Positions 26,001 through 46,069 of a DNA stretch of 64,000 bases are shown piece after piece. Within the stretch, counting starts at the first letter, position 1; every line of letters starts with the position of its first letter. The stretch lies in contig OZ255842.1 of assembly GCA_965277805.1 (NCBI GenBank), positions 1,728,001 to 1,792,000 on the forward strand. Direction: 5' to 3'. The stretch is from Candidatus Lustribacter sp. (lineage in GTDB: Bacteria > Vulcanimicrobiota > Vulcanimicrobiia > Vulcanimicrobiales > Vulcanimicrobiaceae). The position numbers and the translations under genes are program-made. The notes below the pieces were generated by a model. It had not been told where the DNA came from and did not search any database. It saw nothing but the letters and a program-made list of their open reading frames with translations.

Positions 26001-27563
26001 TCAATGCGCGTGGATCGTGAAGGACCACGTGCGCGTCTGCAGGTTCCCGGCTTCATCCGCAACGCGCACTTGCACGTTGACGTTGCCGTCGGGCAGCGAG
26101 ACGCCCGGACTGTACGTGATGAACTGCGCCGTGCGCGTCGACGACGGCGTCACGTCGAGGCCGTTGACCGTGATGATCGCACTCGACGGGTTGATGGTCA
26201 CCCCGGTCGGCGTGCGGAACGTCGCGTAGATCGACGGGCGATCGTTGTTGACGCTCTGCCCATTGAGCGGCGCGATGTCGACGATCTGCGGCGGGGTGCT
26301 CGAGACGGCCAGCAGTTGCGGCGCCTCGGCGCGCGGCGCTTCGTTGCCGCCGGCCGAAAGGTGAGCGTACACCGTCGTTTGGCCGAAGTTCACGTTGGGC
26401 GGGATCGTGTAGTGCGCGGTGTACACGCCGGACTGCGTTTCGTTCAGCGGCAGTCCGGTGAGGTAGGTGCCGATGTCGAACGTCGCGCGGCCACCCGGCG
26501 TGCCGTGCAAAGCGAGGTTGAAGCTATCGCCTGCGCGCAGCGCGTGCTGCGCGTCGATCGTGAACGAAGCGATCGTTACCGGTCCGGCCGGCGCTGCGGT
26601 GGCCGTCATGGCGCGCGAGACGATGATCTCGCGTTTCTCGTTGGTGTCGGGATTGAGCCGCACGACGACGCTATCGCCGATCTTGAGGTCGCCGAGCGCT
26701 GCGGGCGCGGCGTTGAGCGAGATCGTCGTCGACTTGTCGGGCGTCACAATGAAGCCGGTGTTCAGCACGAACTGGCTCGGGGAGACGGCCGCGATGGTGC
26801 CGATGCGCGAGGCGTAACGCACGATCACCGAAGCGACGTGGCCGTCACGCAGGACGTTCACGCTCACGGCATCGCCGACGTGTACGTCGGTGAGGACGCC
26901 CGGCGAGGCCGTTCGCGCGACGACGTCTTGGAGTTGAATGCTCGCGTTCGACGTGATCGCGACGGTGCGCACGTCGGGCCCGCGCTCGACCGTGAGCGAC
27001 TGCGGCGATGAATTCAAGTCGACCGCGCTGACGCTGCCGACGATCTGCGCCGTGCCGCCGGCGGCGTGCTGTTCGAGGGCCGGGTTGCGGCCCACGAGTG
27101 AGGAGACGACCTCCACGCGATTCGCGCGCGGATTGAACGTTGCGAGCGCGCCGAGCGAGGTCGCGACGAAACGCAGCGGCACGTAGGTCGCATTGTCGAT
27201 CGTTATCGCGGGCGCTTCCATGCGCACCGGGGTGCCGTCGATCGTGGCGTCGGCGCTGCCGATCGTGAGCACGATGCGCTTGCCGGGTGCGCTCGCCGTG
27301 ATCGCGTTGCCGTTGCGCGTGACGCCGATGCCGAGCGCGCTGTAGATGCGCACGACCGGAACGACCAGCCGCCCGCCGCCCTTTCCGACGATGCGCGCCG
27401 AAGAATCGCGTGGCAATTCCTGACCGTTGACCGCAATCGCGATCGGTGCATGCCGCTGCACGTGCGGCTTGGGCTTCGCCGCAGCCGACGCAAACGCCGG
27501 AGGGGCGAGCGCCAACACGCATGCCGCCAGTGCGGCTCCGATTCTACGCTCCACTCGACCCAT
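26001..27563 (-). CDS. Secreted protein with copper-amine-oxidase N-terminal (stalk) domain and beta-rich C-terminal domains
   Basis: Signal peptide; IVLTIGSADATIDG, ATYVPLRFVATSLGA; repeated DVHVGD/DLKIGD units; Ig-like C-terminus (VADEAGN..WSF). Confidence 0.75.
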   Translation of the reverse strand: MGRVERRIGAALAACVLALAPPAFASAAAKPKPHVQRHAPIAIAVNGQELPRDSSARIVGKGGGRLVVPVVRIYSALGIGVTRNGNAITASAPGKRIVLTIGSADATIDGTPVRMEAPAITIDNATYVPLRFVATSLGALATFNPRANRVEVVSSLVGRNPALEQHAAGGTAQIVGSVSAVDLNSSPQSLTVERGPDVRTVAITSNASIQLQDVVARTASPGVLTDVHVGDAVSVNVLRDGHVASVIVRYASRIGTIAAVSPSQFVLNTGFIVTPDKSTTISLNAAPAALGDLKIGDSVVVRLNPDTNEKREIIVSRAMTATAAPAGPVTIASFTIDAQHALRAGDSFNLALHGTPGGRATFDIGTYLTGLPLNETQSGVYTAHYTIPPNVNFGQTTVYAHLSAGGNEAPRAEAPQLLAVSSTPPQIVDIAPLNGQSVNNDRPSIYATFRTPTGVTINPSSAIITVNGLDVTPSSTRTAQFITYSPGVSLPDGNVNVQVRVADEAGNLQTRTWSFTIHAH

Positions 27564-28563
27564 CAACGACCTCGCGATACACCGCGGCCGTGGCGGCCGC
27601 AAATCGGTCCCAAGTATACGCGCGCGCAACGGTTTGCCCCTCGGCGGCGCGGCGCCGGTACGGCGCCGGATTGGCGGCGAGATCGGTGAGTGCCGCGCGC
27701 AGCGCGAGCGTATCGTGCGGCGCAAACGTCACCGCGTACGGTGCGAGGATCCCGGGCACCGACGTCGTGCTGGCGATGACCGGCGTTCCCGCGACCATCG
27801 CCTCGAGCATCGGCAACCCGAAGCCTTCCGCCAGGGCCGGATGAACGTAGGCGCTGGCCGCGCGATAGCCGGCGACGAGGTGTGCGTCGCTGAGGTCGCC
27901 CGCGTAGCGCAGTTCGCTGCCGCTGCGCCGGTAGCGCTGCTGCGCGGCGGCATCCGGAGGGCCGGTAATCACGAGGTCCAGTGCGATCGCTTCGGGCAAG
28001 CCGGCCCATGCTTCGTAGAGCGCATCGAGGTTCTTGTGCGGACGATGGTTGCCGGCATACATGATAAACGGCCGCCGCGGCGGGCGCGTTTCGGCGGCCG
28101 CAAACAGCGCCGGGTCGTAACCGAGCGGAACGATGCGGCAGCGTTCGCGCTCGACGCCTAACAGCTCGACGCACGCATCGGCCGTGCGCTCGTCGCTCAT
28201 CAAGAGCAGCGTGGCGCCGCGCAGCATGGGCTTCGCGGCCACCGCGTAAAACGCGGCGGTCGTTTTGCTGAAGAACTGCGGATATTGCAAATGAATCAGA
28301 TCGTGCACCATCGCGACGTACGGTTTGCGGCGGCGCAGCGGGGTAAAGATCGTCGGGTAGTGCGTCACGTCCGGGGCGACGCGATCGATCTCGGCCGGCA
28401 GCCGCAGCTGCTCGTCGAGCCCGAAGTTCAGCCCGCGGCCGACGGCGTGCAGCCGGATGTCGGGCGCAACGCGCGGCAAGCCTTCGACGAGTCCGCGGAC
28501 GTAAGCGCGCACGCCGGCCGACATGCGCGGCGTAATGCGCGCATCGAGCGCCACCTCGATCAT
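27544..28563 (-). CDS. Glycosyltransferase family 4
   Basis: YAGNHRPHKNL, EGFGLPMLEAM..GTPV; ATGA overlap. Confidence 0.9.
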   Translation of the reverse strand: MIEVALDARITPRMSAGVRAYVRGLVEGLPRVAPDIRLHAVGRGLNFGLDEQLRLPAEIDRVAPDVTHYPTIFTPLRRRKPYVAMVHDLIHLQYPQFFSKTTAAFYAVAAKPMLRGATLLLMSDERTADACVELLGVERERCRIVPLGYDPALFAAAETRPPRRPFIMYAGNHRPHKNLDALYEAWAGLPEAIALDLVITGPPDAAAQQRYRRSGSELRYAGDLSDAHLVAGYRAASAYVHPALAEGFGLPMLEAMVAGTPVIASTTSVPGILAPYAVTFAPHDTLALRAALTDLAANPAPYRRRAAEGQTVARAYTWDRFAAATAAVYREVVDGSSGA

Positions 28564-29551
28564 CCACCGATCTCGCGATAGACGTCGGCGGTGAGGCGCG
28601 CCGTGCGTTCCCACGTCAGTTCGCGCGTCGCCGCGCGCGCCGCATCGGCCGCCGCGCGGGCGGCGTCCGGATCGTCGAGCTGGCTCGCCAGCGCATCGCG
28701 CCAAGCCGTTATATCGCTCGCTTCGACGAGCACCGCGTGCGGCGCCAGCACGCGCGGCATGGCGGCGCTCGATGCGACCACGCGCGCGCCGTTGCGCATC
28801 GCCTCGAGCAGCGGCAAGCCGAAGCCCTCGCGCAGCGCCGGATGCGCGTAGACGGCAGCGCCGGCATACCAGCGCCGCAGGTCGTCGTCCGTGCGCTCGC
28901 CGAGAAACACGACCTCGCCCGGGCCACGCACCGCTTGCAGCGCCGCGTCGGGCGGTCCGCTGAGGACGAGATCGACCGCACGTCCCTCACCCAATCCGGC
29001 CCAAGCGGCGATCAACGTCGCGAGGTTCTTGTGCGGGCGGCGATTGCCGACGTAGAGCACGTAGGGTCGCGGGTGTCCGGCCGGCGCCGCAGCCGCCGGC
29101 GGCTCGTCGTAACCCAGCGGGATCACGCGCACGCGCCGCGCGTCCGCACCGAGAAAGCGTTCGAGGTCGTCGACGGTCGCGTCGTCGTCCGTGATCACGG
29201 CGCGTGCGGCGCGCACGACCGGTGCGACGAGCGCGCGCACGTACGGCGCCACCCGGCGCTTCACGAACTGCGGATAGTGCAGGTCGATCAGGTCGTGCAC
29301 GGTCACGACGTAACGGCACGGCACGAAGCGCGGCACGAACAGCGTGGGGAAGTGCGCGATCCGCGCGTGCGAGCGCGCGATGGCGAGCGGCAAACCGACT
29401 TGCTCGGCCAGATCGAAGTTATCGCCGCTCCCGACCGCGACGAGATCCACGTCGGGCGCGACGTGCGGCAGCCATTCGCGCAGCTTGCGCGAGTAGTTGA
29501 GCACGCCGGCCGACATGTGCGAGGTCTCGCGCGCATCGAAGGCGAGGCGAA

Positions 29552-29555
<4 letters not shown>
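28560..29555 (-). CDS. Glycosyltransferase family 4
   Basis: YVGNRRPHKNL, EGFGLPLLEAM. Confidence 0.9.
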
Positions 29556-32839
<3,284 letters not shown>

Positions 32840-34439: not shown

Positions 34440-35006
34440 GTGAATTTCAGTCGTCTCCGCCTCGGCATCGGCCTCGCGGTCATCCTCGGGATCGCTACCG
34501 CCGCCGGGCTCGCGCCGAACGTATCGGACGCGCAAACGCCCGCGCCGGTCCTCACCCCGGTGCCGAGCCCGAGCCCGAGCCCAAGCCCATCCGGCGGCCC
34601 GCGCCGGGGCCGGCGTGCGGCTCCGTCCGGCTCTCCTAGCCCGAACGCCTCGCCGTCCGACACGCCCGAACCGCCGCAGTTCACCACCCTGGACGGCATC
34701 TGGGAAGTGGAAGGGCAGCCGATCGGCAAGCGCTTGGCAACCTACACGCATCTGAGCATCAACACGACCGGCGCCGACATCAACGGCTACTATCAAGCCG
34801 GCGGCAAGAACGCGCCCAAGTATCCGATGACGGGCACGTTCGACGGCCGCTTGATCACGATGAGCGTCAACATGCCCAACGGCAAGACCATGACGTTCAA
34901 CGGCTACGTTGAGACCTTCGCCGACATGGTCGGGTTGTACAAGACGGGCGATGCGGATCCGGGCACGGCCTTCACCGCGCAGCATCGCAAGAAAATGAAG
35001 AACTGA
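34440..35006 (+). CDS. Secreted hypothetical protein with Pro/Ser linker
   Basis: Signal peptide, PSPSPSPSP linker, beta-rich C-terminal domain; TGATG coupled to the next gene. Confidence 0.75.
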   Translation: MNFSRLRLGIGLAVILGIATAAGLAPNVSDAQTPAPVLTPVPSPSPSPSPSGGPRRGRRAAPSGSPSPNASPSDTPEPPQFTTLDGIWEVEGQPIGKRLATYTHLSINTTGADINGYYQAGGKNAPKYPMTGTFDGRLITMSVNMPNGKTMTFNGYVETFADMVGLYKTGDADPGTAFTAQHRKKMKN

Positions 35007-35428
35007 TGATCCTCAGCACCGACGCGGCGATCAAAGAACTGCTCGAACGCTCGAAGACGGTGGCGGTCGTCGGCGCGTCGGCAAACGCAGCGCGGCCGAG
35101 CAACGACGTCTTCCGGCAAATCGTGCGCGGCGGCCGCTATGCGGCGGCGCCGATCAATCCGGCGATCGCGGAAATCGACGGGATCGCCGCCTTCCCCGAT
35201 CTCGCGGCGTACGCGGCCAAAAACGGCGGACCCGACATCGTCGACGTGTTCCGCAATCCGGACGACGCGCCGGAAGTGACGCGCGAGGCCATCGCAGCCG
35301 GTGCGAAATCGATCTGGTTCCAACTCGGCGTCGTCAACAACGATGCGATCGCAGCCGCCGATGCGGCCGGCCTCGACGTCGTAGCCGATCGCTGCCTCAA
35401 GATCGAGATCGCCCGCCTCCTGCGGTGA
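35006..35428 (+). CDS. CoA-binding protein (YccU-like)
   Basis: TVAVVGAS..RPS, DIVDVFR, IWFQLG, VVADRCLKIE. Confidence 0.92.
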   Translation: MILSTDAAIKELLERSKTVAVVGASANAARPSNDVFRQIVRGGRYAAAPINPAIAEIDGIAAFPDLAAYAAKNGGPDIVDVFRNPDDAPEVTREAIAAGAKSIWFQLGVVNNDAIAAADAAGLDVVADRCLKIEIARLLR

Positions 35429-36516
35429 GCGACGACTACCGCGCGCAGGCCGATGCGCTCGACGCGCGCATCCGGAACGCGATCGCGGCGTATGCACTCG
35501 ACGATGCCGCTTTCGACGCGCTGGCATGTGAGGTGTTCGCGCATCAGTTCCGCTGGAACGCACCGTACGCCGCCTACGCGCGCAGCCTCGGCATCACAGA
35601 ACGTTCGCTGCCGCGCACGATCGCGGCGATTCCGGCCGTTCCCGCGGCGGCATTCAAAGACGCCGCGTTCTCCACGGTCGCTCCCGAACGCGCCGCGCTG
35701 TGGTTCGAAACGAGCGGTACCACGCAAGCCCGCAGCGGCCGCCACTACTTGGAAACGCCGGCGCTGTACGAAGCCGCGCTCTTGGGCGGCTTCGATCGCG
35801 CGATGCTTGCCGACGGCGCGCAGCTGCGGTATGTCATGCTCGTGCCCGATCCGCGCGAACGCCCGCACTCATCGCTCGGCTACATGATGGCCACGGTTGC
35901 GCGCGAGCGCGGCGACGGCCGCGAGGGCTGGTACTTGCACGGCGACGCGCTCGACGTCGTGGGCTTGTGCCGCGACATCGAACGCGCCGATGCCGACGGC
36001 GCCCCGGTCTGCATCGCAACGACGGCCTTCGCGCTGCTCGCGCTGCTCGATGAACTCGATTCGTCCGGACGCACGTTGCCGTTGCCCACGGGCTCGCGCG
36101 TGATGGAGACGGGCGGCTTCAAGGGCCGCACGCGCGTCGTCGGGCGCGAAGAACTCTACGCGCGCGCCGCCGCGGCTTTCGCGATCGGCGTGCCGTCGAT
36201 CGTGGCCGAGTACGGCATGACCGAACTCTCGAGCCAGTACTACGACTCGCCGGGCTCACGCTGGTCGGCGCGGCGCATCAAGCAGCCCGTGCCGTGGCTG
36301 CGTCCGTTGATCGTCGATGTGATGGGGAAACCATTGCCGGACGGCATCGTCGGCGCGATCCGGCACATCGATTGCGCCAATCGCTCGTCGGTCGTCGCGA
36401 TCGACACCGAAGATCTCGGCGTCATCGCGCCCGAGGGATTGTTGCTGCTCGGACGTGAGGAAGGCGCCGCGCTGCGCGGCTGCTCGCTGGATGCCGAAGA
36501 CCTCCTGCGCCGATAG
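35425..36516 (+). CDS. LuxE-like acyl-protein synthetase
   Basis: IPAVPAAAFK, FETSGTT, METGGFKGR, EYGMTELSSQ, TEDLG, C-terminal LLGR...RGCS (candidate acyl-accepting Cys). Confidence 0.85.
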   Translation: MSDDYRAQADALDARIRNAIAAYALDDAAFDALACEVFAHQFRWNAPYAAYARSLGITERSLPRTIAAIPAVPAAAFKDAAFSTVAPERAALWFETSGTTQARSGRHYLETPALYEAALLGGFDRAMLADGAQLRYVMLVPDPRERPHSSLGYMMATVARERGDGREGWYLHGDALDVVGLCRDIERADADGAPVCIATTAFALLALLDELDSSGRTLPLPTGSRVMETGGFKGRTRVVGREELYARAAAAFAIGVPSIVAEYGMTELSSQYYDSPGSRWSARRIKQPVPWLRPLIVDVMGKPLPDGIVGAIRHIDCANRSSVVAIDTEDLGVIAPEGLLLLGREEGAALRGCSLDAEDLLRR

Positions 36517-37735
36517 CACCGGACTGCGCGCATTGCCGGCACGCGCGATCGTGCGCGCGATCGCGGATGCCGCCGAACGCTGGACCGATGCCGATTTTCC
36601 GCCGCGCGTGCGCGCGACCGCGGCGATTGAAGCGCGCCTCGGCTACACGACACCGGTCGTCGACTACGCGCTCGATCATCTTTTCGATGCGATCACGCCC
36701 GATGCCATCGTCGCCGCGATCGCGGGCGAGCTTGGCGCGCTCGACGCGCTCGACGGCTTTGCGGCAACGCCCGGGCGTCCGGCGGCGTGGGCGCGCGGTG
36801 CGGACGCGGTCACGATCGTATCGAGCGACACGACGATCGGCGTGGCGATCGCGCCGCTGGTCTTCGCGCTCTGCGCAAAGTGCGCGGTGACGGTGAAAGA
36901 TCGCGCCGACGCGCTGGTGGCGGCGTTCGTCGAAACGCTCGGCGAAGAGCGGCCGGAACTGCGCGCCGCAACCGACGTGCGCGCGTGGAGCGGCGGTGAT
37001 GAAGACATCGAAGCGCAGACGCTCGGCGCAGCCGACGTCGTGGTGGCATTCGGCGGACCCGATGCGCTGCGCGCCATCCGCGCACGCTGCGCGCCGGACG
37101 CGACCTTCGTGCCGTTCGGGCATCGCGCGAGCGCCGGTTACGTCACCGCCGCCGCACTCGCCGGCGACACCACCACGCTCGCGGCGGCCATCGCGCGCGA
37201 CGCGCTGCTCTACGACGGGGACGGCTGTCTGTCGCTGCATCTGCTCTTTGTCGAGCGCGCGCCGGACGGGGCTCACGAGCGCTTCGTCGATGCGCTGGCC
37301 GAAGCGTGCGCCGAAAACGCGATCGAGTTTCCGGCCGGACCGCGCAAGCCGGCGCGGGCGGCACGTGTCGGCGCGTACGCGGCGACGGCGGCCGTGCGCG
37401 CGGCCAACGGAGCGGGACGCGTGTTGCGCGCACCCGACGGCGCGTGGACGATCGTTGCCGATCCGCCCGCCGGCGAGCTGCCGCCGTTCGGCGGCGGCGT
37501 GATTCCGGTCGTGTTCGTCGACGGCATCGGCGCTGCGGCGGAGTACGTGCAACGGCATGCGCTGCCGCTGCAAGCGTTGGGCGTCGCGACGACCGAAGGC
37601 GCGCGCGAACTCGCCGAGGCGCTTGGGGCCGTGCGCGTTACCCCGTTCGGCCAGATGCAGAATCCGCCGCTCGCCGGCCATCACGGCGGCCGCGCGCGCA
37701 TTGCCGATTTCATCTGCTGGACCGATCGCGCGTGA
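36491..37735 (+). CDS. LuxC-like acyl-CoA/acyl-protein reductase
   Basis: ALDH-fold features: VVVAFGG, PFGHRAS, ARDALLYDGDGCLS (candidate catalytic Cys), GQMQNPPL..HHGG; follows the LuxE-like gene. Confidence 0.82.
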   Translation: MPKTSCADSTGLRALPARAIVRAIADAAERWTDADFPPRVRATAAIEARLGYTTPVVDYALDHLFDAITPDAIVAAIAGELGALDALDGFAATPGRPAAWARGADAVTIVSSDTTIGVAIAPLVFALCAKCAVTVKDRADALVAAFVETLGEERPELRAATDVRAWSGGDEDIEAQTLGAADVVVAFGGPDALRAIRARCAPDATFVPFGHRASAGYVTAAALAGDTTTLAAAIARDALLYDGDGCLSLHLLFVERAPDGAHERFVDALAEACAENAIEFPAGPRKPARAARVGAYAATAAVRAANGAGRVLRAPDGAWTIVADPPAGELPPFGGGVIPVVFVDGIGAAAEYVQRHALPLQALGVATTEGARELAEALGAVRVTPFGQMQNPPLAGHHGGRARIADFICWTDRA

Positions 37736-39027
37736 CCGGCGAACGTTTCGAGCACATCGCCGGGCCGGTTCCCGGGCCGCGTTCGCGCGAGCTCAACGCG
37801 CTCGTCGCACAGTACGAAGCGCGCGGCGTCACCTATCTCGCCGACGACTACCCGATCGCCTGGGCGTCGGCACGCGGTGCGCTCGTCACCGATGCGGACG
37901 GCAATCGCTATCTCGACTTGACCGGAGCCTTCAGCGTGGCCGCGCTCGGTCACACGCATCCGGCCGTGACGCACGCGGTTACCGCGCAAGCGCACCAGCT
38001 CGTGCACGGCATGGGCGACGTCCATCCGACCGACGTCAAGGCGAAGCTGCTCGCGCGCCTCGCGGCCATTGCGCCGGGCGATTGTTCGAAAAGCTATTTC
38101 GGCTCGAACGGCGCCGACGCGATAGAATTTGCGCTGAAGACCGCGTTGCTCGCGACCGGACGTCCGCGCGTGCTCTCCTACCAGGGCGCGTATCACGGCC
38201 TGTCGCTCGGCGCGCTGCCGGTCAGCGGCATCGACCGCTTCCGTGAACCGTTTGCCGCGCTGATCGACGAGCGCGCAACGTTCATCCCGTTCCCCGGCGC
38301 CGGCGACTCCCTCGACGGCGCGCTGGCTGCCGCACGCCATGCGCTCGAGAGCGATGAACGCATCGGCGCGGTGGTGCTCGAACCGATTCAGGGCCGCGGC
38401 GGCGTGATCGTTCCGCCCGACGGCTTCTTGCCCGGCATCCGCGCGCTCTGCGATGAGTTCCGGTGCGTGATGATCCTCGATGAGATCTACACCGGTTACG
38501 GCCGCACCGGCACGATGTTTGCCTGCGAGCGCGAAGCAGTGGTTCCCGATATCCTGTGCATCGGCAAGGCGATCGCCGGCGGCGTACCGTTTTCGGCCGC
38601 CATCGGCCGCCCGGCGGTGATGGATGCCTGGCCGCGCAGCGAAGGCGAAGCGCTGCACACCGCCACGTTCCTCGGCAACCCGCTCGCCTGTGCCGCGGCG
38701 CTGGCGGTGCTCGATGCCTTCGAACGCGATGGGATCGTCGCCGGCGTTGCTCGCCGCGCGCCGCGGGTGCGCGAACTGCTCGCGCCGCTCGGGCGACATG
38801 CAACCGTTACCGGCGTGCGCGGCATCGGAATGCTCTGGGCCATCGAGTTCACGGACGCCGGCGTCGCGAATCGCGTCGTACGGGCCGGACTGCAGCGTGG
38901 GTTGATCCTGCTGCAGTCCGGCGTCGACGGAACGTCGATCACGCTGGCCCCGCCCCTGAACATCGCAGACGATCAATTCGAGCGCGCAATAGCGCTGCTC
39001 GACCGCACTATCGAGGAGACATCATGA
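37732..39027 (+). CDS. Class III PLP-dependent aminotransferase
   Basis: DADGNRYLD, AYHG, EPIQGRGG, DEIYTGYGRTG, GKAIAGG (PLP Lys), ATFLGNP; GTGA overlap. Confidence 0.92.
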   Translation: MTGERFEHIAGPVPGPRSRELNALVAQYEARGVTYLADDYPIAWASARGALVTDADGNRYLDLTGAFSVAALGHTHPAVTHAVTAQAHQLVHGMGDVHPTDVKAKLLARLAAIAPGDCSKSYFGSNGADAIEFALKTALLATGRPRVLSYQGAYHGLSLGALPVSGIDRFREPFAALIDERATFIPFPGAGDSLDGALAAARHALESDERIGAVVLEPIQGRGGVIVPPDGFLPGIRALCDEFRCVMILDEIYTGYGRTGTMFACEREAVVPDILCIGKAIAGGVPFSAAIGRPAVMDAWPRSEGEALHTATFLGNPLACAAALAVLDAFERDGIVAGVARRAPRVRELLAPLGRHATVTGVRGIGMLWAIEFTDAGVANRVVRAGLQRGLILLQSGVDGTSITLAPPLNIADDQFERAIALLDRTIEETS

Positions 39028-40064
39028 CACCCTATCGCGTCGGTATCGTCGGCAGCGGCTTCGGCGGCCGCGTGCACGCCCCGGGATTCTCGCTGCACCC
39101 GCAATTCGACCCGGTCGCGATCGCGTCACCGAACAACGCGCAAAAGGTCGCGACCGAACGCAAGATACCGCACGCGTTCCCGTCACTCGATGCGATGCTC
39201 GACAAAATGGGCGCGGAGATCGACGTCATCTCGATCGCCTCGCCGCCGTTCGAACACCACAAAGCCGTGATGACCGCGATCGCCGCGGGCAAGCACGTGC
39301 TCTGCGAAAAGCCGGTCAGCACGCGCTTGGCCGAGGCCGAAGAGATGACGGACGCGGCGGCCAAGGCCGGCATCGCCAACGCGATCACGTTCGAGTACCG
39401 CTACAACCCGGCGCTGCAAGCGCTCAAAGAACTGATCGTCAACGATCATATGCCGAAGCTGCGGCTGATCGAAGTGACGCGCTTCGGGCGCGACATGAAG
39501 GCCGACAACGCGCGGCCGCCGTCGTCGTGGTGGTACGACAAGAGCAAAGGCGGCGGTCTCGGCAACGCCTTCATGCCGCATATCGTCGACCTCGCTCTGT
39601 GGCTTGCCGGGAGCGGTGCCAAATCGACGGCCGGATTCATGCGGACGGCCAATCCCGTGCGCACCGCGCCCGACGGCAGCACCTATCCGAGCAACGTCGC
39701 CGACGGCTGCTACGCGCTCTCCGACTTGGGCAACGGCATCGTGGCGCAGATGAAAGTCGACGGCACGATGTCGATGGACCAATCGACCGTCGCCGTCCAC
39801 TCCGAAGCACGAACGGCCGTGGCGAGCGGTCCCGCGTTGACCGATTTCACGCTCTACATCGTCGACGGCGACGATTCGAGCGAGTACGAACTCAAGCCGA
39901 TGAAATACGCGAAGTACGCGAACATCTTCTATAGCATCCCGCACTTCATGGCGCTGCTCGACGATTTCGCCGAACGCATCGCGACCGGCGGGGGCAACTG
40001 TCCGGACTTCGCCGACGGCCTCGCCGCGCAACGCGTCCTCCACGCCATCGGCTACGAAGCCTAA
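39024..40064 (+). CDS. Gfo/Idh/MocA-family oxidoreductase
   Basis: VGIVGSGFGG, GKHVLCEKP, GGGLG; GAGGAG RBS and ATGA overlap. Confidence 0.9.
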   Translation: MTPYRVGIVGSGFGGRVHAPGFSLHPQFDPVAIASPNNAQKVATERKIPHAFPSLDAMLDKMGAEIDVISIASPPFEHHKAVMTAIAAGKHVLCEKPVSTRLAEAEEMTDAAAKAGIANAITFEYRYNPALQALKELIVNDHMPKLRLIEVTRFGRDMKADNARPPSSWWYDKSKGGGLGNAFMPHIVDLALWLAGSGAKSTAGFMRTANPVRTAPDGSTYPSNVADGCYALSDLGNGIVAQMKVDGTMSMDQSTVAVHSEARTAVASGPALTDFTLYIVDGDDSSEYELKPMKYAKYANIFYSIPHFMALLDDFAERIATGGGNCPDFADGLAAQRVLHAIGYEA

Positions 40065-40069
40065 CGCCG

Positions 40070-40888
40070 GTGGCAGCGGGGCCCGAGAGCAGCGCGGAAC
40101 GCGTCGCCTTGTGGCGCGCGCTGCACGTGCAAATCGACGCGTCGCCGCACGTGATCGACGATGAGGTCGGGCTGCGTCTGATCGATCCGCCGGCCGGCTG
40201 GCAGCAACGTCCTGATATGGACCCCGAAGGCACCCGCACCTTCCGCACCTCGATCGTCGCCCGCGCGCGCTTCATCGAAGACCTCGTCGTTGCGGAACGG
40301 GCGAAGGGCGTCGACCAGTACGTGATCCTCGGCGCGGGCCTCGACACGTTCGTCCAGCGCTGCCCCGAGGTCGCTTCCGCGATGCACGTCTACGAAGTCG
40401 ATCAGCCCGACCCGCAGACGTGGAAACAACAACGGCTGATCGAACTCGGTTACGGCATCCCCGGTCGGCTGCACTTCGTCCCGGTCAACTTTGAACAAGA
40501 CCAATGGTGGGAACGCCTCGCGCAAGCGGGCTTCGACGCGAGACGCCCCGCAGTCGTAGCCGCAACCGGCCTCAGCCTCTATCTCACCAAAGAAGCAAAC
40601 TTGGATTTGCTGCGACGAATCGCAACATTCGCACCAGGCTCAACGCTCGCGTTCACGTTCATCCTGCCGGCCGAAGTTCCGGATGATGTCAAGAAAGCAG
40701 CGCGCGCGTCCGGAACCCCGTTCCTCAGCGCCTTCACCCCATCCGAAATGCTCGACCTCGGCCGCGAAGCCGGTTTCCGCGACGTCCAGTGCGTCCTCGG
40801 CGACGACCTCGCCGAACGCTACTTCACCAACCGCACCGACAACCTGCGCCCCTCAAACGGCGAAGCCTTCCTCATCGCCAACACCTGA
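40070..40888 (+). CDS. Class I SAM-dependent methyltransferase (LCM/O-methyltransferase-like)
   Basis: ALWRALH, ARARFIED, QYVILGAGLDT, YEVDQP, GLSLYLT. Confidence 0.9.
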   Translation: MAAGPESSAERVALWRALHVQIDASPHVIDDEVGLRLIDPPAGWQQRPDMDPEGTRTFRTSIVARARFIEDLVVAERAKGVDQYVILGAGLDTFVQRCPEVASAMHVYEVDQPDPQTWKQQRLIELGYGIPGRLHFVPVNFEQDQWWERLAQAGFDARRPAVVAATGLSLYLTKEANLDLLRRIATFAPGSTLAFTFILPAEVPDDVKKAARASGTPFLSAFTPSEMLDLGREAGFRDVQCVLGDDLAERYFTNRTDNLRPSNGEAFLIANT

Positions 40889-41082: not shown

Positions 41083-42348
41083 TCAGCTCTTGGCGGGGAT
41101 AGGGTGTTCCAGGCGGCGCCAAATGAGGCTTAGGGCGGTCATGGTGGCGCGCGTTAGGACGTCGTTGCGGTTGCCGGGGAACGTGCCGCGGTGGGTGGTT
41201 ACTTCGTTTGCGTCGTCGATGAGGGCGAACCAGACGAGGCCGATGGGTTTTTCTGCGCTGCCGCCGTCGGGGCCGGCGATGCCGGTTGTGGCCAATGCGA
41301 AGTCGACGTTTAGGGCTTTCTTCGTGCCGCGGGCCATCTCGATTGCGGTCTCTTCGCTGACGGCGCCGTGTTGCGCCAGCGTTTCGGGGCGTACGCCGAG
41401 CAGCGATTGCTTCACCGTGTTGTCGTAAGCGACGATGCCGCCGTAAAAGGCGCGCGAGGCGCCGGCTGTTTCCACGATGCTCTCCGCCACGCCGCCGCCG
41501 GTGACGGATTCTGCGACGCCGATCGTCTTGCCGCGGCGTACGAGTTCGTTGACGATTGCGCCACCGGGCGTGATGGCATCGTCGCCGTAGTACCCGGCGC
41601 CGATTCGCTCGCGCAGTTGCTGCGCGACCGGCGCGATCATCGCATCGGCGGCGGCTTGGCTCTCGGCTTTGGCCATCACTTTGACGTCGACGCGGCCACC
41701 GTGCGCGAGCATCGCGATCTTCGGGTTCTCGAGGGACCGGAACAGATCTTCGACCCGGCGGTCGAGCTCGGATTCGCCGATCCCGATCGTGTGCAAGGTC
41801 TTCGTGTAGATCGCGCTCTTGAGCCCGAAGCGTTCGACGAGCCACGGAATCACTTGGTCGGCGAGCATGGGCTTCATTTCGCGCGGCACGCCCGGCATGC
41901 AGGCGACGAACTTCCCGTCCGGCCGCAGCGCGATGAAGCCCGGCGCCGTACCGTTCGGGTTCGGCATCACGTGCGCGCGCGAGGGCAGAATCGCTTGGCG
42001 GCGATTGTTGTCGGTCATCGGGCGGTTGAGGCTGCGGAATCGCTCTTCGAGCGCGCGCAGCGACGGCTCGTGCGGCTCGAGCTTGTCGTGCACGGCCTTC
42101 GCGACGGCATCTTTGGTGAGATCGTCGACGGTCGGTCCGAGCCCGCCGGTCGTGATCACGCCGTCGGCGCGATCCAGCGCATCGGCGAGCATGATCGCCA
42201 GCCGTTCGGTATTATCGCCGACCGAATGCTTTGCGTACACGTCCACGCCGTGATCGGCCAGCATCTGCGCGATGTAGACGGAGTTCGTGTCGACAAGATG
42301 TCCAAGCAGAATCTCGGTGCCGATCGTGACGATTTCGACCGATGCCAC
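41083..42348 (-). CDS. cinA: CinA (MoeA-like domain plus PncC NMN deamidase)
   Basis: IGTEILLG..DTN, TGGLGPTVDDLT, GTAPG, PGVPREM; AESVTGG, GAVSEE, TTGIAGPDGG. Confidence 0.95.
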   Translation of the reverse strand: MASVEIVTIGTEILLGHLVDTNSVYIAQMLADHGVDVYAKHSVGDNTERLAIMLADALDRADGVITTGGLGPTVDDLTKDAVAKAVHDKLEPHEPSLRALEERFRSLNRPMTDNNRRQAILPSRAHVMPNPNGTAPGFIALRPDGKFVACMPGVPREMKPMLADQVIPWLVERFGLKSAIYTKTLHTIGIGESELDRRVEDLFRSLENPKIAMLAHGGRVDVKVMAKAESQAAADAMIAPVAQQLRERIGAGYYGDDAITPGGAIVNELVRRGKTIGVAESVTGGGVAESIVETAGASRAFYGGIVAYDNTVKQSLLGVRPETLAQHGAVSEETAIEMARGTKKALNVDFALATTGIAGPDGGSAEKPIGLVWFALIDDANEVTTHRGTFPGNRNDVLTRATMTALSLIWRRLEHPIPAKS

Positions 42349-42926
42349 TATGCCGTATCCTCAGCGGCGAACCAAGCTGGATACTTCACTTGCACGGCAA
42401 CCTCAAAGCCGTCCGCCGCCGCCATCATCGTGTCACGCCGGGCCGCGGCGTCATCCGGATGCTCGGCGCGGCTAGCTTTGCGCCGCTCCGCCAGGGCCGC
42501 GAGAAAGCGAGCGAAGCGCGAGTCGAGCGCGTCTTGCAGCGCCGCGCGCAGAATACCGCCGACGCGCGGCGACACCCCGCCCGTCGAGATCGCGATGCGC
42601 GCAGGGCCCGAAGCCACGGTCGCTTGCATCGCGACGAACCCGTATTCCGGCTGATCGATCGTGCACAATAAGAAACGGTGCTTGTCAGCCCAGCCCCGGA
42701 GACGTGCGGAGAATTGTGCGTCCTGCACGGTCGAGAGCACGAAAAACGCATTGGCCAAGCCGGTTTCCGGTATACCCGCAGCGTCGTGAAGCCGAATGAC
42801 ATTGGCGCCCGCTTCGTGCAGCGCGGCAGCTTTCTCGCTCGCTTCTCGATCGTCCGCAGCCCCGATGACGATGCAGCGCCGCCCGGTCAGGTTCAAGCCC
42901 ACCGGAAAGTACGCCGGCGGCAGCAT
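42348..42926 (-). CDS. Precorrin-2 dehydrogenase/SirC-Met8-like protein (short, divergent)
   Basis: YFPVGLNLTGRRCIVIG, TIDQPEYG, IAISTGGVSPR; TGATG start. Confidence 0.7.
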   Translation of the reverse strand: MLPPAYFPVGLNLTGRRCIVIGAADDREASEKAAALHEAGANVIRLHDAAGIPETGLANAFFVLSTVQDAQFSARLRGWADKHRFLLCTIDQPEYGFVAMQATVASGPARIAISTGGVSPRVGGILRAALQDALDSRFARFLAALAERRKASRAEHPDDAAARRDTMMAAADGFEVAVQVKYPAWFAAEDTA

Positions 42927-43777
42927 CAGTAATCGACGGGTCGCAGGTAGAACTCGTTGATCGCCGTTCCCGAGACGAGCGCCGTGGTCGGAAGATGCCG
43001 CTTCCAATGCGTGCTCTCCACGCGCCGCCGCACGAGTTGGATCTCGTGCGGATCGAAGCCGACCGCGGCGATCTGCTCGTCGCGATAGCCGGCCAGAATC
43101 TGCGAGAGGATGCGATCGGCCGTGAGGTACGTGACGCCCATGTCGCCTTCGTCGGTCTGATTCGCTTCGAGGTCGGCACTCGGCGGCTTGTCGATCACTT
43201 CCAGCGGCACGCCCATGTGCCGTGAGAGCGCCCAGACCTGCGTCTTGAACAGATCGCCGATCGGGTTGACCGGCGGTGTATCGTCGGCATGCCAGGTGAA
43301 GTAGCCCATCATGCGTTCCGTCTTGTTCCCGGTGCCGATCGGCAGCGCGCCGAGGCGTGCGGACTGATCGAACAGCACGAGCATGCGCATACGGGCCATC
43401 ACGTTGCCCCGCCGGCGCGGATCGGGATCGTGCGCCGCGCGCAGATAGCCGTCGACCGCATCGGTGATCTCGATCGTATCGCAGTTGATGCCGAGCGCAT
43501 CGACGACGCGCTGTGCGTCATCGAGCGAGTCCTTGCTCGAGGTTTTGTACGGCATGCGGATCGCGTAAACGTTCTCCGGGCCGAGGGCGCGCGCGCACAG
43601 GAACGCTACCAGCGCCGAGTCGATGCCGCCGCTCAAGCCCAGCACGGCCTTCGTGATGCGGCGCCGTTCGATCAACTCGTCGCGCAAAAACGCCGTCAGC
43701 CAGCGCTCAGTGAGCGCGGCGTCGATCTTCAGCGCCGCATCGATGCGATGCAGCGGCGCGTCAACGAGCGGTAACAT
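42926..43777 (-). CDS. nadE: NAD+ synthetase (synthetase subunit)
   Basis: GLSGGIDS, GNVMARMRM, GTGNKTE, PIGDLFKTQV, KPPSADL. Confidence 0.95.
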   Translation of the reverse strand: MLPLVDAPLHRIDAALKIDAALTERWLTAFLRDELIERRRITKAVLGLSGGIDSALVAFLCARALGPENVYAIRMPYKTSSKDSLDDAQRVVDALGINCDTIEITDAVDGYLRAAHDPDPRRRGNVMARMRMLVLFDQSARLGALPIGTGNKTERMMGYFTWHADDTPPVNPIGDLFKTQVWALSRHMGVPLEVIDKPPSADLEANQTDEGDMGVTYLTADRILSQILAGYRDEQIAAVGFDPHEIQLVRRRVESTHWKRHLPTTALVSGTAINEFYLRPVDY

Positions 43778-44669
43778 CAGCCACCGAATTTCGCGGACGC
43801 GGGATCGCCGTGTCGTACCAGAGATCGGGCAGCACCGCCGAGAGATCGCCGAGCAGCGGCAGCGTCGCCCGCGCCAAGTCGATCTCGGCCGTGTCGAGTC
43901 GCGCGCGCAGGATCGCCACCGACAATTCGTCGAGCGATTCCAGCAGCGAGCCGCGCGGCGAAACGATGCACGAACTGCCCGACATGCCCTTGCCGCCCTC
44001 GAAGCCCGTCAGGCCCGCATAGAGTACGTAGACGCCGTGTTCGCTCGCCATCAGCGTGGCGGTCGCGCGCCAGCGCTCGACGCTCTCGAGCAGCCCGTCA
44101 CCGGCCAAACCGCGGCCCGGCGAGGCGCTCGGAATGATGATCAGACGCGCACCCTTGAGCGCCGCGATGGTGGGCATGATCGAATGCCAGGCATCCTCGC
44201 AGATGAGGATGGCGGCGGTTCCGAACGGCGTCGGAAACACGTCGAGTGCGCGGCCGCGCGAGAGAAATCGTTCCTCATCGAAGACGCCGTACGTCGGCAA
44301 GAACATCTTGCGATGAACGTGCACGATGCGCGGCCGCGTTCCGCCGATCGTCGCGTAGAGCGCGCTGTTGTGATACGTGCCGTCGTGGTTCTCATAGAAG
44401 CCGCACACGATGTCGACGGCCGTGTTGCCGCCGGCGGCGCGCCATTCGGCGTCGAGCTTAGCCGCAAACGCATCGGCGGTAAACGACAGCTCGTACACCG
44501 CGCCCTCGAGGAAGTAGCCCGTCAGCGCCGCTTCGGGCAACACGATCAGCTCCGGCACCGCGGCCGGCGTGGCGATCAGCTGCGCGAAAACGCCCCGTAA
44601 CGCGGCCAGGTTCGCCGCGACGTCGCCCTTGCGGGGCTTGAACTGCACGATCGCAACGTCGAAGGTCAT
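43761..44669 (-). CDS. Nitrilase-fold glutaminase partner of NadE
   Basis: E-K-C triad PEAAL / HRKMFLPTYGVFDE / ICEDAW; SASPGRG; overlaps nadE. Confidence 0.85.
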   Translation of the reverse strand: MTFDVAIVQFKPRKGDVAANLAALRGVFAQLIATPAAVPELIVLPEAALTGYFLEGAVYELSFTADAFAAKLDAEWRAAGGNTAVDIVCGFYENHDGTYHNSALYATIGGTRPRIVHVHRKMFLPTYGVFDEERFLSRGRALDVFPTPFGTAAILICEDAWHSIMPTIAALKGARLIIIPSASPGRGLAGDGLLESVERWRATATLMASEHGVYVLYAGLTGFEGGKGMSGSSCIVSPRGSLLESLDELSVAILRARLDTAEIDLARATLPLLGDLSAVLPDLWYDTAIPRPRNSVADVTAR

Positions 44670-46069
44670 CGGGCAATCTTCAACGGGCGCTCGGCGATGA
44701 TCTTCTCCATCAGCTCCTCGGCGGGGTAGGTCCAAATTTCCGCCATCGTCGGGTGCAGATGCGGGATCTTCACGAAATCGAACACGGTGGCGTGGTAGAA
44801 CAGCGCGACGACGACCTCGTGGATGAGATCGGAGCCGTCGGCGCCGAGGATCGCGGCACCTAAGATGCGGCCATCGCTCGGCGAGGCCATCATCTTCACG
44901 AAGCCCTTGATCTTGCCGATCGAGATCGCTTTGCCGTGATCGTTGAACGGATAGCTCGCGACGAGATACGGGATCCCGGCGCGCTGCAGTTCCTTCTCCG
45001 TCTCGCCCGCGATCGCGACTTGCGGATCGGAGAACACCGTGTGCGTTTTGGAGAGGCTGTAGTCGACGTGCTCCTGCGTGCCGCGGACCGCGTTGCGCGC
45101 GGCCAGTTCGCCCTGCTGGATCGCGACGTGCACCAGAGCAAACATTCCCGTGACGTCGCCGACGGCGAAGATGTGCGGTTGCGACGTGCGCATCGTACCG
45201 TCGATCGTGATGCCGGTCATGGCGTGATAGGTGACGCCTGCGGCCTCGAGGTTCAGCCCCTCGACCGTCGGCACGCGCCCGAGCGCATAGAAAATCTCGT
45301 GCGCCGCAACGGATTTTTCGGCGCCGTCTTGCAGGAAGTGCACGACCTTCAGGCCGTCTTCACGCCGGCTGACGCGCTGCACCCGAGCGCCGGTCTCGAC
45401 CGCGATGCCTTCCTCGCGAAAATATTCCGTGAGGCCCTCGCCGACGTCGGTGTCTTCATCCGTGAGCAGCTGGTTGCTGCGAATGACGATCGTGGTCGGC
45501 ACGCCGATGCGCGCGTAGAACTGCCCGAGTTCGCTGCCGACATAGCCGCCGCCGAGCACGATCAGCGACTTCGGCGGTTCGCTGAGTTCGAGCGCTTCGT
45601 CGCTTTCGATGTAGCCGGTTTCCGCCAAGCCCGGAAACACCGGCGGTGCAATCGTGCTGCCGGTTCCGATGACGAACGATTTGCCCTCGAGCACGTCGTC
45701 GCCGACGCGCAGCTTGTGCGGTGATTCGAACGCCGCGGCGCCGTGGAAGACCGGGAACGTCTCGATTCCGGCGACGCGGTAGTCGGTAAAGCCCTGGATG
45801 ATCTCTTTTTTACGCGCCATGACGGCGGCAAAATCGACAATGGGCTCGCCGGCGTGAATGCCCAGTTCCTCAGAGTGGCGGATCTCGTGGGCCAGGTCGC
45901 CGGTGGCGATCAGCGTTTTCGACGGCATACAGCCGCGCAAGATGCACAAGCCGCCGAGCGGGCCGCGGTCGACCAGCGCGACCGAGGCGCCGAGCTCACG
46001 GGCGGTGCGGGCTGCGGCGTACCCGCCGGAACCGGCGCCGACGACGATCAGATCGAACTGGTGATTCAC
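44666..46069 (-). CDS. Pyridine nucleotide-disulfide oxidoreductase (dihydrolipoyl dehydrogenase family)
   Basis: GAGSGG, GGLCILRGCMPSK, GGGYVGSE, FAVGDV, HPTMAE; no C-terminal CC, so not MerA. Confidence 0.88.
   Translation of the reverse strand: MNHQFDLIVVGAGSGGYAAARTARELGASVALVDRGPLGGLCILRGCMPSKTLIATGDLAHEIRHSEELGIHAGEPIVDFAAVMARKKEIIQGFTDYRVAGIETFPVFHGAAAFESPHKLRVGDDVLEGKSFVIGTGSTIAPPVFPGLAETGYIESDEALELSEPPKSLIVLGGGYVGSELGQFYARIGVPTTIVIRSNQLLTDEDTDVGEGLTEYFREEGIAVETGARVQRVSRREDGLKVVHFLQDGAEKSVAAHEIFYALGRVPTVEGLNLEAAGVTYHAMTGITIDGTMRTSQPHIFAVGDVTGMFALVHVAIQQGELAARNAVRGTQEHVDYSLSKTHTVFSDPQVAIAGETEKELQRAGIPYLVASYPFNDHGKAISIGKIKGFVKMMASPSDGRILGAAILGADGSDLIHEVVVALFYHATVFDFVKIPHLHPTMAEIWTYPAEELMEKIIAERPLKIAR

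Follow-up and report, generated by a model that had tools for sequence, protein, structure and literature searches.

Queuosine biosynthesis is regarded as worked out, and the nitrile chemistry of QueC and QueF is treated as its hallmark: QueC, whose first step is the ATP-dependent activation of the carboxylate of 7-carboxy-7-deazaguanine (CDG), converts the acid to a nitrile, and QueF converts the nitrile to an amine. A route from an acyl thioester through an aldehyde to a primary amine is described for the TabE/TabA module of tambjamine BE-18591, in a preprint that also places TabE with LuxC in one sequence cluster (bioRxiv 10.1101/2025.08.11.669332). TamH and PigE are named there, and in an NCBIfam entry (NF053554), as similar modules of a thioester reductase and an omega-transaminase. 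In the LuxC-LuxE complex of Photobacterium phosphoreum (7XC6), a Cys near the C-terminus of the activator passes the acyl group to the Cys of a reductase of the aldehyde dehydrogenase superfamily, forming a two-protein relay that ends in an aldehyde. The locus analysed here bears a likeness to each of these systems. It lies in a window of 64,000 nucleotides (nt), bases 1728001-1792000 of a single 5.53 Mb contig (OZ255842.1) of a Candidatus Lustribacter sp. genome (GCA_965277805.1), where three consecutive genes encode a LuxE-like activator, a LuxC-like reductase and a class III (omega) aminotransferase.

We propose that this trio converts CDG, the product of QueE, to preQ1 (7-aminomethyl-7-deazaguanine) and would thus replace both QueC and QueF, a reading to which we give a probability of roughly 0.6. 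The conversion of an acid, by way of an aldehyde, to a primary amine is the exact difference between CDG and preQ1, which argues for this proposal. The observations that carry it are the domains and catalytic residues of the three proteins, the conservation of the trio, a gap in the queuosine pathway, a distribution complementary to that of QueC, and the fact that relatives lie next to queD or queE. A first-pass annotation of this DNA had already suggested a chemistry leading from an acid through a thioester and an aldehyde to a primary amine. This suggestion is supported, the trio having the required parts with conserved catalytic residues; CDG was not among the substrates that the annotation considered.

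The three core proteins

The core genes and the codons of their putative catalytic residues are given below, with positions counted from the first base of the window.

35425-36516, + strand: g3, LuxE-like, adenylate-forming acid activator of the PaaK fold, 363 amino acids (aa); Pfam LuxE PF04443; core part 1
36121-36123, + strand: codon of g3 Lys233 (GGFK motif), aligned with LuxE Lys238
36481-36483, + strand: codon of g3 Cys353 (RGCS motif), the presumed acyl-carrying Cys, 10 residues from the C-terminus
36491-37735, + strand: g4, LuxC-like thioester reductase, 414 aa from ATG 36491; LuxC PF05893; core part 2
37226-37228, + strand: codon of g4 Cys246 (DGDGCLS motif), the presumed catalytic Cys, aligned with the Cys of P. 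phosphoreum LuxC
37732-39027, + strand: g5, class III (omega) aminotransferase, 431 aa; Aminotran_3, 303.9 bits; core part 3

The family profiles expected from the first-pass annotation (LuxE PF04443, LuxC PF05893 and Aminotran_3) all match, and the RGCS and DGDGCLS motifs that it had pointed out are present in the LuxE-like and LuxC-like proteins, respectively. The activator g3 is the single match to PF04443 in the genome (35.9 bits, cut-off 24.9) and resembles LuxE of the P. phosphoreum complex (chain E of 7XC6) with a phmmer E-value of 3.5e-9. Lys233 in its GGFK motif is invariant in 24 orthologues and aligns with Lys238 in the GGWK motif of P. phosphoreum LuxE, a residue named as belonging to the active site in PMC9157457. 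The RGCS motif, with Cys353 of 363 residues, occurs in 74 of 75 complete g3 orthologues and is invariant in the 24-sequence alignment; in LuxE, the C-terminal Cys364 is described as the carrier that hands the acyl group to the Cys of LuxC, according to the review PMC12041015. The AlphaFold model of g3 has a mean predicted local distance difference test score (pLDDT) of 89.4, and its tail (residues 345-363) is disordered, with pLDDT below 50, in keeping with a swinging arm. In structural comparison, the model is matched best by PaaK1 (2Y27), ClxA (9S45) and McbA (6SQ8), at E-values of about 1e-11, a template modelling (TM) score of 0.6 and an identity of 14-17%. These enzymes activate aromatic or heteroaromatic acids; unlike g3, they pass the acyl group to coenzyme A (CoA) or an amine and are without a C-terminal Cys tail.

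The reductase g4 is likewise encoded in single copy (LuxC PF05893, 134.8 bits, cut-off 21) and resembles LuxC of 7XC6 (chain A) with a phmmer E-value of 1.5e-7. Its Cys246 aligns with the Cys of the YDQQACFS motif, which lies in the catalytic region of P. phosphoreum LuxC. All 14 close relatives share this Cys, and in the alignment of 51 distant homologues no other column is invariant. The two Cys residues and the Lys of LuxE are conserved here, and the two genes are adjacent and overlapping; however, the similarity amounts only to E-values of about 1e-7 to 1e-9, the scores fall far below the equivalog cut-offs, and an aminotransferase is coupled to the two. Their proposed substrate would also differ, being a deazapurine acid in place of myristic acid.

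The genome-wide profile searches bear out the statement of the first-pass annotation that the window contains no luxA, luxB or luxD: the 44 matches to the luciferase-like family (PF00296) that the genome contains all fall outside the window, the highest score with the LuxA model NF052254 is 88.2 bits against a cut-off of 600, and LuxD (PF02273) has no match in the genome. The locus thus differs from that of luminous bacteria in having neither luxA, a luxB-type luciferase nor luxD, and these comparisons indicate that g3 and g4 would work in the manner of LuxE and LuxC and are not members of a bioluminescence system. The 44 luciferase-like monooxygenase matches are unusually many for one genome. 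Three of these genes were scanned with NCBIfam; one has SsuD as its best match, and the other two have a MupA/Atu3671-type family, below its cut-off.

As products of the trio, the first-pass annotation had put forward fatty amines or amino-lipids, made from fatty acids by way of fatty aldehydes and tailored by the oxidoreductase and the methyltransferase encoded downstream. The Pfam family names LuxE and LuxC point in this direction, as do two published systems: the LuxC-LuxE enzymes of luminous bacteria, which act on myristic acid (PMC12041015), and a Streptomyces tambjamine pathway, in which the LuxC-like reductase TabE and the omega-transaminase TabA make dodecylamine (bioRxiv 10.1101/2025.08.11.669332). 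We nevertheless consider fatty products improbable. The protein g3 scores 31.3 bits with the NCBIfam equivalog of LuxE (NF052244, long-chain-fatty-acid--protein ligase) against a cut-off of 550, and g4 scores 27.5 bits with that of LuxC (NF052251, long-chain fatty acyl reductase) against a cut-off of 750. The modelled fold of g3 is nearest to the aromatic-acid activators PaaK1, ClxA and McbA, and 7XC6 is not among the 50 ranked structural matches shown for its model. The cluster contains no acyl carrier, thioesterase or lipid gene, and no lipid genes lie nearby; the methyltransferase is found in only 1 of 61 related loci, and the relatives are linked to queD and queE instead, as detailed below. 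TabE/TabA, TamH and PigE act on fatty acyl chains bound to a carrier protein or CoA in secondary metabolism, whereas the genes studied here come without a carrier protein, with a self-acylating activator of the LuxE type, and belong to the core genome of a whole class.

The best solved relatives of the aminotransferase g5 are a putrescine aminotransferase (E-value 1.2e-69) and 4-aminobutyrate (GABA) aminotransferases. It reaches no NCBIfam equivalog cut-off (best 310 bits against 574), and its match to the PigE aminotransferase model (NF053554) is partial, with 267 bits where the cut-off is 850. The genome also encodes ArgD, BioA-like and HemL paralogues and a further one that matches PRK06062, all of them distinct from g5; an identity of g5 as ArgD was rejected. 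It had been suggested that the trio replaces the semialdehyde steps of amino-acid metabolism, leading from aspartate, glutamate or aminoadipate through a semialdehyde to a diamine, ornithine or lysine. The partial matches of g5 to acetylornithine, putrescine and GABA aminotransferase models agree with this suggestion, and the chemistry of the trio is analogous to that of ArgC/ArgD or LysY/LysJ. It is nonetheless hardly credible, since the genome already possesses canonical Asd (304.9 bits, cut-off 223), ArgC (317.8 bits, cut-off 233.6) and ArgD (465.5 bits, cut-off 410), with ArgC about 2 kb from ArgD; to this are added the failure of g5 to reach any equivalog cut-off and a linkage to amino-acid genes that is confined to a MetY-like gene in some relatives.

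A second omega-aminotransferase is encoded at genome positions 3620121-3621413 (minus strand); its nearest family is putrescine aminotransferase (469.8 bits, where the cut-off is 612), and it adjoins no LuxC. The open frame of 988 aa around this gene, at 3620121-3623084, was considered as a fusion protein and rejected, its upstream part being a spurious extension rich in Arg and Asp.

Conservation of the trio and the gap in queuosine biosynthesis

Close relatives of the locus were obtained from a species-level genome scan with a LuxC alignment, which gave 164 confirmed relatives; the best 80 loci, nearly all from Eremiobacterota, were kept, and their gene content was established by tblastn with the seven proteins of the cluster. 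LuxE lies upstream of LuxC in 72 of the 76 loci with enough flanking sequence, and the aminotransferase directly follows LuxC in 65 of 65, a count of which 61 satisfy a strict distance rule while the matches in the other four begin a few bases inside the computed end of LuxC. The arrangement LuxE-LuxC-aminotransferase is not a product of chance. The phylum was sampled with 151 genomes, including an unpublished one (G128) that is counted in the f3 tallies; the window's own family (f1) and its sister families f2 and f3 form one class. LuxC is present in all 71 genomes of f1 and in the single one of f2. In f3, the close profile detected it in five of nine genomes, and a broader profile found it in the remaining four together with one that was retested (5/5), which brings the total to 9/9. 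The order LuxE-LuxC-aminotransferase was found again in the five f3 loci inspected, so that the conservation of the aminotransferase beside luxE and luxC holds both for the related loci and for this sister family.

The window's genome encodes Tgt (498.6 bits), QueA (396.7 bits), QueG (309.2 bits, cut-off 200) and QueD (TIGR03367, 98.9 bits, cut-off 89.25), and QueD is adjoined by a radical S-adenosylmethionine (SAM) gene of 210 aa whose five best NCBIfam matches are QueE models. Neither QueF nor QueH has a match in this genome, and the sole matches to QueC (27.5 and 25.1 bits) are MnmA (371 bits) and NAD synthase. Since QueD, a QueE-like protein, Tgt, QueA and QueG are present while QueC and QueF are absent, the missing step is exactly the one from CDG to preQ1. 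Across f1, QueD and the QueE-like gene are each found in 71/71 genomes and Tgt in 70/71, with QueF in 0/71 and QueC, at E<=1e-20, in 2/71; the two QueC-like genes, at 86.3 and 76.1 bits, lie below the QueC equivalog cut-off of 150.3. The que pattern of the one f2 genome is the same, and f3 shows QueD-like proteins (below the cut-off) and Tgt in 9/9 genomes each, with QueC and QueF in 0/9. Conversely, in nine other families (f4, f5 and f10-f16; 21 genomes), QueC is present in 21/21 and this LuxC in 0/21. The trio-type LuxC and QueC thus have a complementary distribution in the phylum sample.

Some observations on QueC and LuxC in the same sample may be added. In f1, QueC-like genes are found alongside the trio in G063 (C50:42520-43146) and G118 (C33:290151-290702). 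QueC occurs without a detected QueF in f13 (QueC 6/6, QueF 1/6) and f10 (2/2 against 0/2), which may mean that the short QueF model failed to detect the gene or that another step is involved. Other families of the phylum carry a separate LuxC subfamily, in which LuxC is fused to a PaaK-like AMP-binding enzyme in proteins of 874-1314 aa, with LuxE also fused at the N-terminus in one of them (L185:7043-9841, L186:8021-11053, L187:6937-9561, L188:7563-11507, L189:1284-3941 and L190:6885-9539); these fusions have no aminotransferase and occur with or without QueC. Weak LuxC matches were considered as counter-examples to the complementarity and rejected, the six inspected (G035, G046, G058, G086, G090 and G110) being fusions without an aminotransferase; five genomes of the sample hold both QueC and a weak LuxC match, and G035 is the one of these five that was among those inspected.

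It could be argued that there is no gap to be filled, the lineage importing preQ1, preQ0 or queuine, with QueD and QueE as remnants or in the service of another deazapurine and the trio unrelated. Many bacteria do salvage queuosine precursors, family f6 keeps Tgt in 19/19 genomes with QueC in 1/19 and QueD in 1/19, and the genome has a weak Vut_1 match (39.3 bits). We regard this explanation as very improbable, given that QueD and the QueE-like gene are kept throughout the 71 genomes of f1, that to our knowledge the only use of QueD and QueE is to make CDG, and that salvage does not explain the linkage of the relatives to queD and queE. The Vut_1/YhhQ-like match was considered as a preQ1 importer and rejected, as it corresponds to the membrane portion of a GGDEF protein in which no match to the YhhQ family was found.

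This linkage was found among distant relatives. A search of 1.84 billion representative proteins yielded 1705 LuxC homologues, and a metagenome scan with ten distant homologues aligned (37-43% identical to the first sequence and 28-38% to g4) yielded 494 relatives; the 80 best loci among these were searched by tblastn with the proteins of the window's own genome. LuxE precedes LuxC in 56 of the 60 metagenome loci with sufficient flanking sequence. In 45 of the 74 loci with enough flank, LuxC is followed within 700 nt by a QueD homologue in the same orientation, at a median gap of 54 nt, and four loci show the order QueE-small open reading frame-aminotransferase-LuxE-LuxC; counted as neighbours over all 80 loci, queD occurs in 46 and queE in 4. 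NCBIfam confirms QueD in 4/4 of the loci tested (101-108 bits, cut-off 89.25) and QueE in 3/4 (298-306 bits, with the cut-off at 300). A compact luxE-luxC-queD unit is the commonest arrangement among these distant relatives (for example L113, L114, L126, L136, L146, L162-L164, L168 and L174).

The aminotransferases of the four queE-linked metagenome loci and of four f3 loci find their best match in the window's genome in g5, with 292-338 bits against 151-180 bits for the next paralogue. A FastTree phylogeny unites them with g5 and the g5 orthologues of f1 in a single clade (support 0.895), apart from the ArgD, BioA-like, putrescine-aminotransferase-like and PRK06062-matching paralogues of the genome. 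From these scores and this tree we take g5 to be an orthologue of the aminotransferases of the queE-linked clusters.

The surrounding genes of the cluster

The trio is part of a cluster of seven plus-strand open reading frames that fill 34440-40888 and were correctly recognised in the first-pass annotation as co-oriented genes with abutting or overlapping ends. The other four members are the following.

34440-35006, + strand: g1, small protein, predicted to be secreted; without a match to a Pfam or NCBIfam family; opens the cluster
35006-35428, + strand: g2, small CoA-binding protein; CoA_binding_2 PF13380, 116.7 bits
39024-40064, + strand: g6, Gfo/Idh/MocA NAD(P) oxidoreductase; GFO_IDH_MocA PF01408, 94 bits
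40070-40888, + strand: g7, SAM methyltransferase of the LCM/TIGR00027 type; LCM, 173 bits; TIGR00027, 153.4 bits, cut-off 93.55

The junctions are tight: g1 and g2 have 1 nt in common (TGATG), g2/g3 and g4/g5 overlap by GTGA and g5/g6 by ATGA, g3 and g4 overlap by 26 nt if g4 starts at ATG 36491 (the alternative start being GTG 36455), and 5 nt separate g6 from g7. The translation of g1 has a hydrophobic N-terminus and a linker rich in Pro and Ser, and a protein search of the Atlas gave unnamed clusters only. The oxidoreductase g6 combines an N-terminal Rossmann domain with a C-terminal alpha/beta domain (94, 43.8 and 25 bits) and lies below all NCBIfam equivalog cut-offs, with levoglucosan dehydrogenase as the best (93.4 bits against 650).

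The conservation of these four genes is uneven. In the related loci, g1 is upstream in 53/53, the CoA-binding gene g2 is present in 46/75, the Gfo gene g6 comes next after the aminotransferase in 62/62, and the methyltransferase g7 occurs in 1/61, namely in the closest relative (L003). Beyond the family, g1, g2 and g6 were not found near the trio in four f3 loci extended to 18 kb, and orthologues of g6 occur in 64/71 f1 genomes and were found in no genome of the phylum sample outside f1. In the 80 metagenome loci, Gfo appears in two, as weak and distant matches, and g1, g2 and g7 have no match. Because the f3 loci keep the trio without g1, g2 and g6, and g7 is nearly absent from the relatives, the unit that persists beyond the family is the trio of the LuxE-like protein, the LuxC-like protein and the class III aminotransferase; Gfo is a family-level addition, and the methyltransferase is a recent neighbour. 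The idea that the oxidoreductase and the methyltransferase tailor the product therefore finds no support, the former having an orthologue only in f1 and not in f2 or f3, the latter being confined to a single related locus. We treat g1, g2, g6 and g7 as predicted co-transcribed neighbours and do not assign them to the pathway.

In many relatives, a MetY-like gene (a pyridoxal 5'-phosphate (PLP) enzyme of Cys/Met metabolism, about 432 aa) stands between g1 and the CoA-binding gene; it is missing from the window's own cluster. Cys_Met_Meta_PP genes lie directly upstream of the g2 homologue at L031:5143-6441, L033:4094-5398 and L067:5391-6452. The gene g2 is probably tied to this MetY-like gene rather than to LuxE.

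The cluster is flanked on one side by a divergent rpmE-prfA-prmC-pyrG block and on the other by a convergent block with cinA and NAD synthase. The latter (window positions 41083-46069, minus strand) comprises cinA, a small NAD-binding protein, NAD synthase, a nitrilase-family gene and a dihydrolipoyl-dehydrogenase-like gene, and it is syntenic in 18-54 of the 80 related loci, which suggests that the region is a conserved housekeeping neighbourhood. The core function that had been suspected from the position of the genes is in keeping with this, and the data are compatible with a housekeeping role. Three glycosyltransferase genes (two GT4 and one GT2-like) lie upstream of pyrG, prmC, prfA and rpmE at window positions 27544-30229 (minus strand) and are kept in only 4-6 of the 80 related loci.

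The proposed route from CDG to preQ1

A number of observations weigh against the conversion of CDG to preQ1 by the trio. The QueE-like protein of the window's genome reaches none of the QueE cut-offs (112.1 bits at best, against 240). Some 3.7 Mb separate the trio from queD-queE, the 80 related loci contain no QueD, QueE, Tgt or QueA, and the genome is rated 95% complete with 5.9% contamination. No preQ1 riboswitch or credible Rfam match was found between positions 30000 and 42000, where matches were at chance level only; this absence weighs little, since many que genes lack a preQ1 riboswitch. The Gfo gene is tightly coupled to the aminotransferase and yet has no role in the scheme. As f1, f2 and f3 form one class, the counts overstate the independence of the phyletic pattern, and the loss of QueC and QueF together with the gain of the trio may have been a single event. 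Among the distant relatives, no class III aminotransferase lies near the queD-linked loci that have at least 5 kb on both sides (0/11). In the LuxC trees (one quick tree and one FastTree tree rooted on the fused subfamily, read without support values), the LuxC of this lineage forms a long branch that is sister to the que-linked clade and not nested in it; orthology of LuxC with that clade is not settled by the trees, and the link rests on the aminotransferase and the pathway gap. Finally, 10 of the 14 aminotransferases found near metagenomic LuxE-LuxC pairs belong to another clade, which means that trios of LuxE, LuxC and an aminotransferase need not all have one function. Trios of this second kind, with an aminotransferase of the ArgD/putrescine-aminotransferase-like clade, are found at L096, L097, L101, L104, L116, L117, L123, L127 and L131, may act on another acid, and have their best match in the window's genome in the aminotransferase at 3620121-3621413.

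In view of these points, the trio might be a reductive-amination module for another acid, unrelated to queuosine, with the step of QueC and QueF filled otherwise; candidates are 6-carboxy-tetrahydropterin (the product of QueD), a sugar or cyclitol acid shared with the Gfo/Idh/MocA oxidoreductase, or a further metabolite. Such an acid would accord with the position of the trio away from the que genes in this lineage, with the translational coupling of Gfo to the aminotransferase and its invariable place behind it in the related loci, and with the LuxC tree. The predominance of queD over queE beside the metagenomic relatives would accord as well, the QueD product itself being a carboxylic acid, and the pairing of a second aminotransferase clade with LuxE-LuxC suggests that the module serves more than one purpose. 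We judge another acid to be unlikely, albeit well worth bearing in mind, because it would leave the exact gap between CDG and preQ1 in 81 sampled genomes that keep QueD and Tgt, QueA and QueG having been shown in the window's own genome. We know of no need for an aminomethyl-pterin. Furthermore, Gfo is missing from f2, from f3 and from 7 of the 71 f1 genomes, all of which keep the trio, and g5 appears orthologous to the queE-linked aminotransferases.

For the conversion of CDG to preQ1, we infer the following scheme, in all its chemical steps as well as in its substrate, cofactor and amino donor. The LuxE-like g3 would adenylate the carboxylate of CDG with ATP to give CDG-AMP and bind the acyl group in thioester linkage to Cys353, on the flexible tail at its C-terminus; the tail would then pass it to Cys246 of the LuxC-like g4. 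The latter would reduce the thioester with NAD(P)H to 7-formyl-7-deazaguanine, and the PLP-dependent transamination of this aldehyde by g5 would create the aminomethyl group of preQ1, from which Tgt, QueA and QueG of the same genome would make queuosine in tRNA. The proposed intermediate, 7-formyl-7-deazaguanine, is described in PMC13740343 as a known, releasable compound produced by QueF variants.

In its proposed function, the trio would share with QueC and QueF the start and end compounds and the downstream enzymes Tgt, QueA and QueG, although there is no homology between the two sets of proteins. The first step would also be of the same kind, QueC likewise beginning with an ATP-dependent activation of the CDG carboxylate. 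Beyond this, the known route proceeds through an amide and a nitrile and consumes two NADPH, whereas the proposed one would have a thioester and an aldehyde as intermediates and would require one NAD(P)H and a transamination step. No published description of an acid-aldehyde-amine route to preQ1 was found in full text, most subscription journals being outside the scope of that search. What is new here is a lineage with a universal trio and an exact gap, together with the orthology, as judged from the aminotransferase phylogeny, of g5 to the queE-linked clusters.

It can further be hypothesised, with slightly less assurance than for the proposed activity of the three proteins themselves, that the whole class, as well as many uncultured bacteria known from metagenomes, makes preQ1 without the nitrile preQ0, by a route of a LuxE-type, a LuxC-type and an omega-aminotransferase enzyme. 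If the proposal is true, it would be a case of non-orthologous replacement of both QueC and QueF and would explain the many genomes that have queD, queE and tgt without queC and queF. Thousands of genes that now go by the names "acyl-CoA reductase" or "acyl-protein synthetase" would have their annotation corrected, queuosine auxotrophy would be predicted differently from genomes, and a carrier-free set of enzymes for turning heteroaromatic acids into amines, of interest to biocatalysis, would be added. The LuxC-LuxE relay, known only from bioluminescence, would then have an older, housekeeping use.

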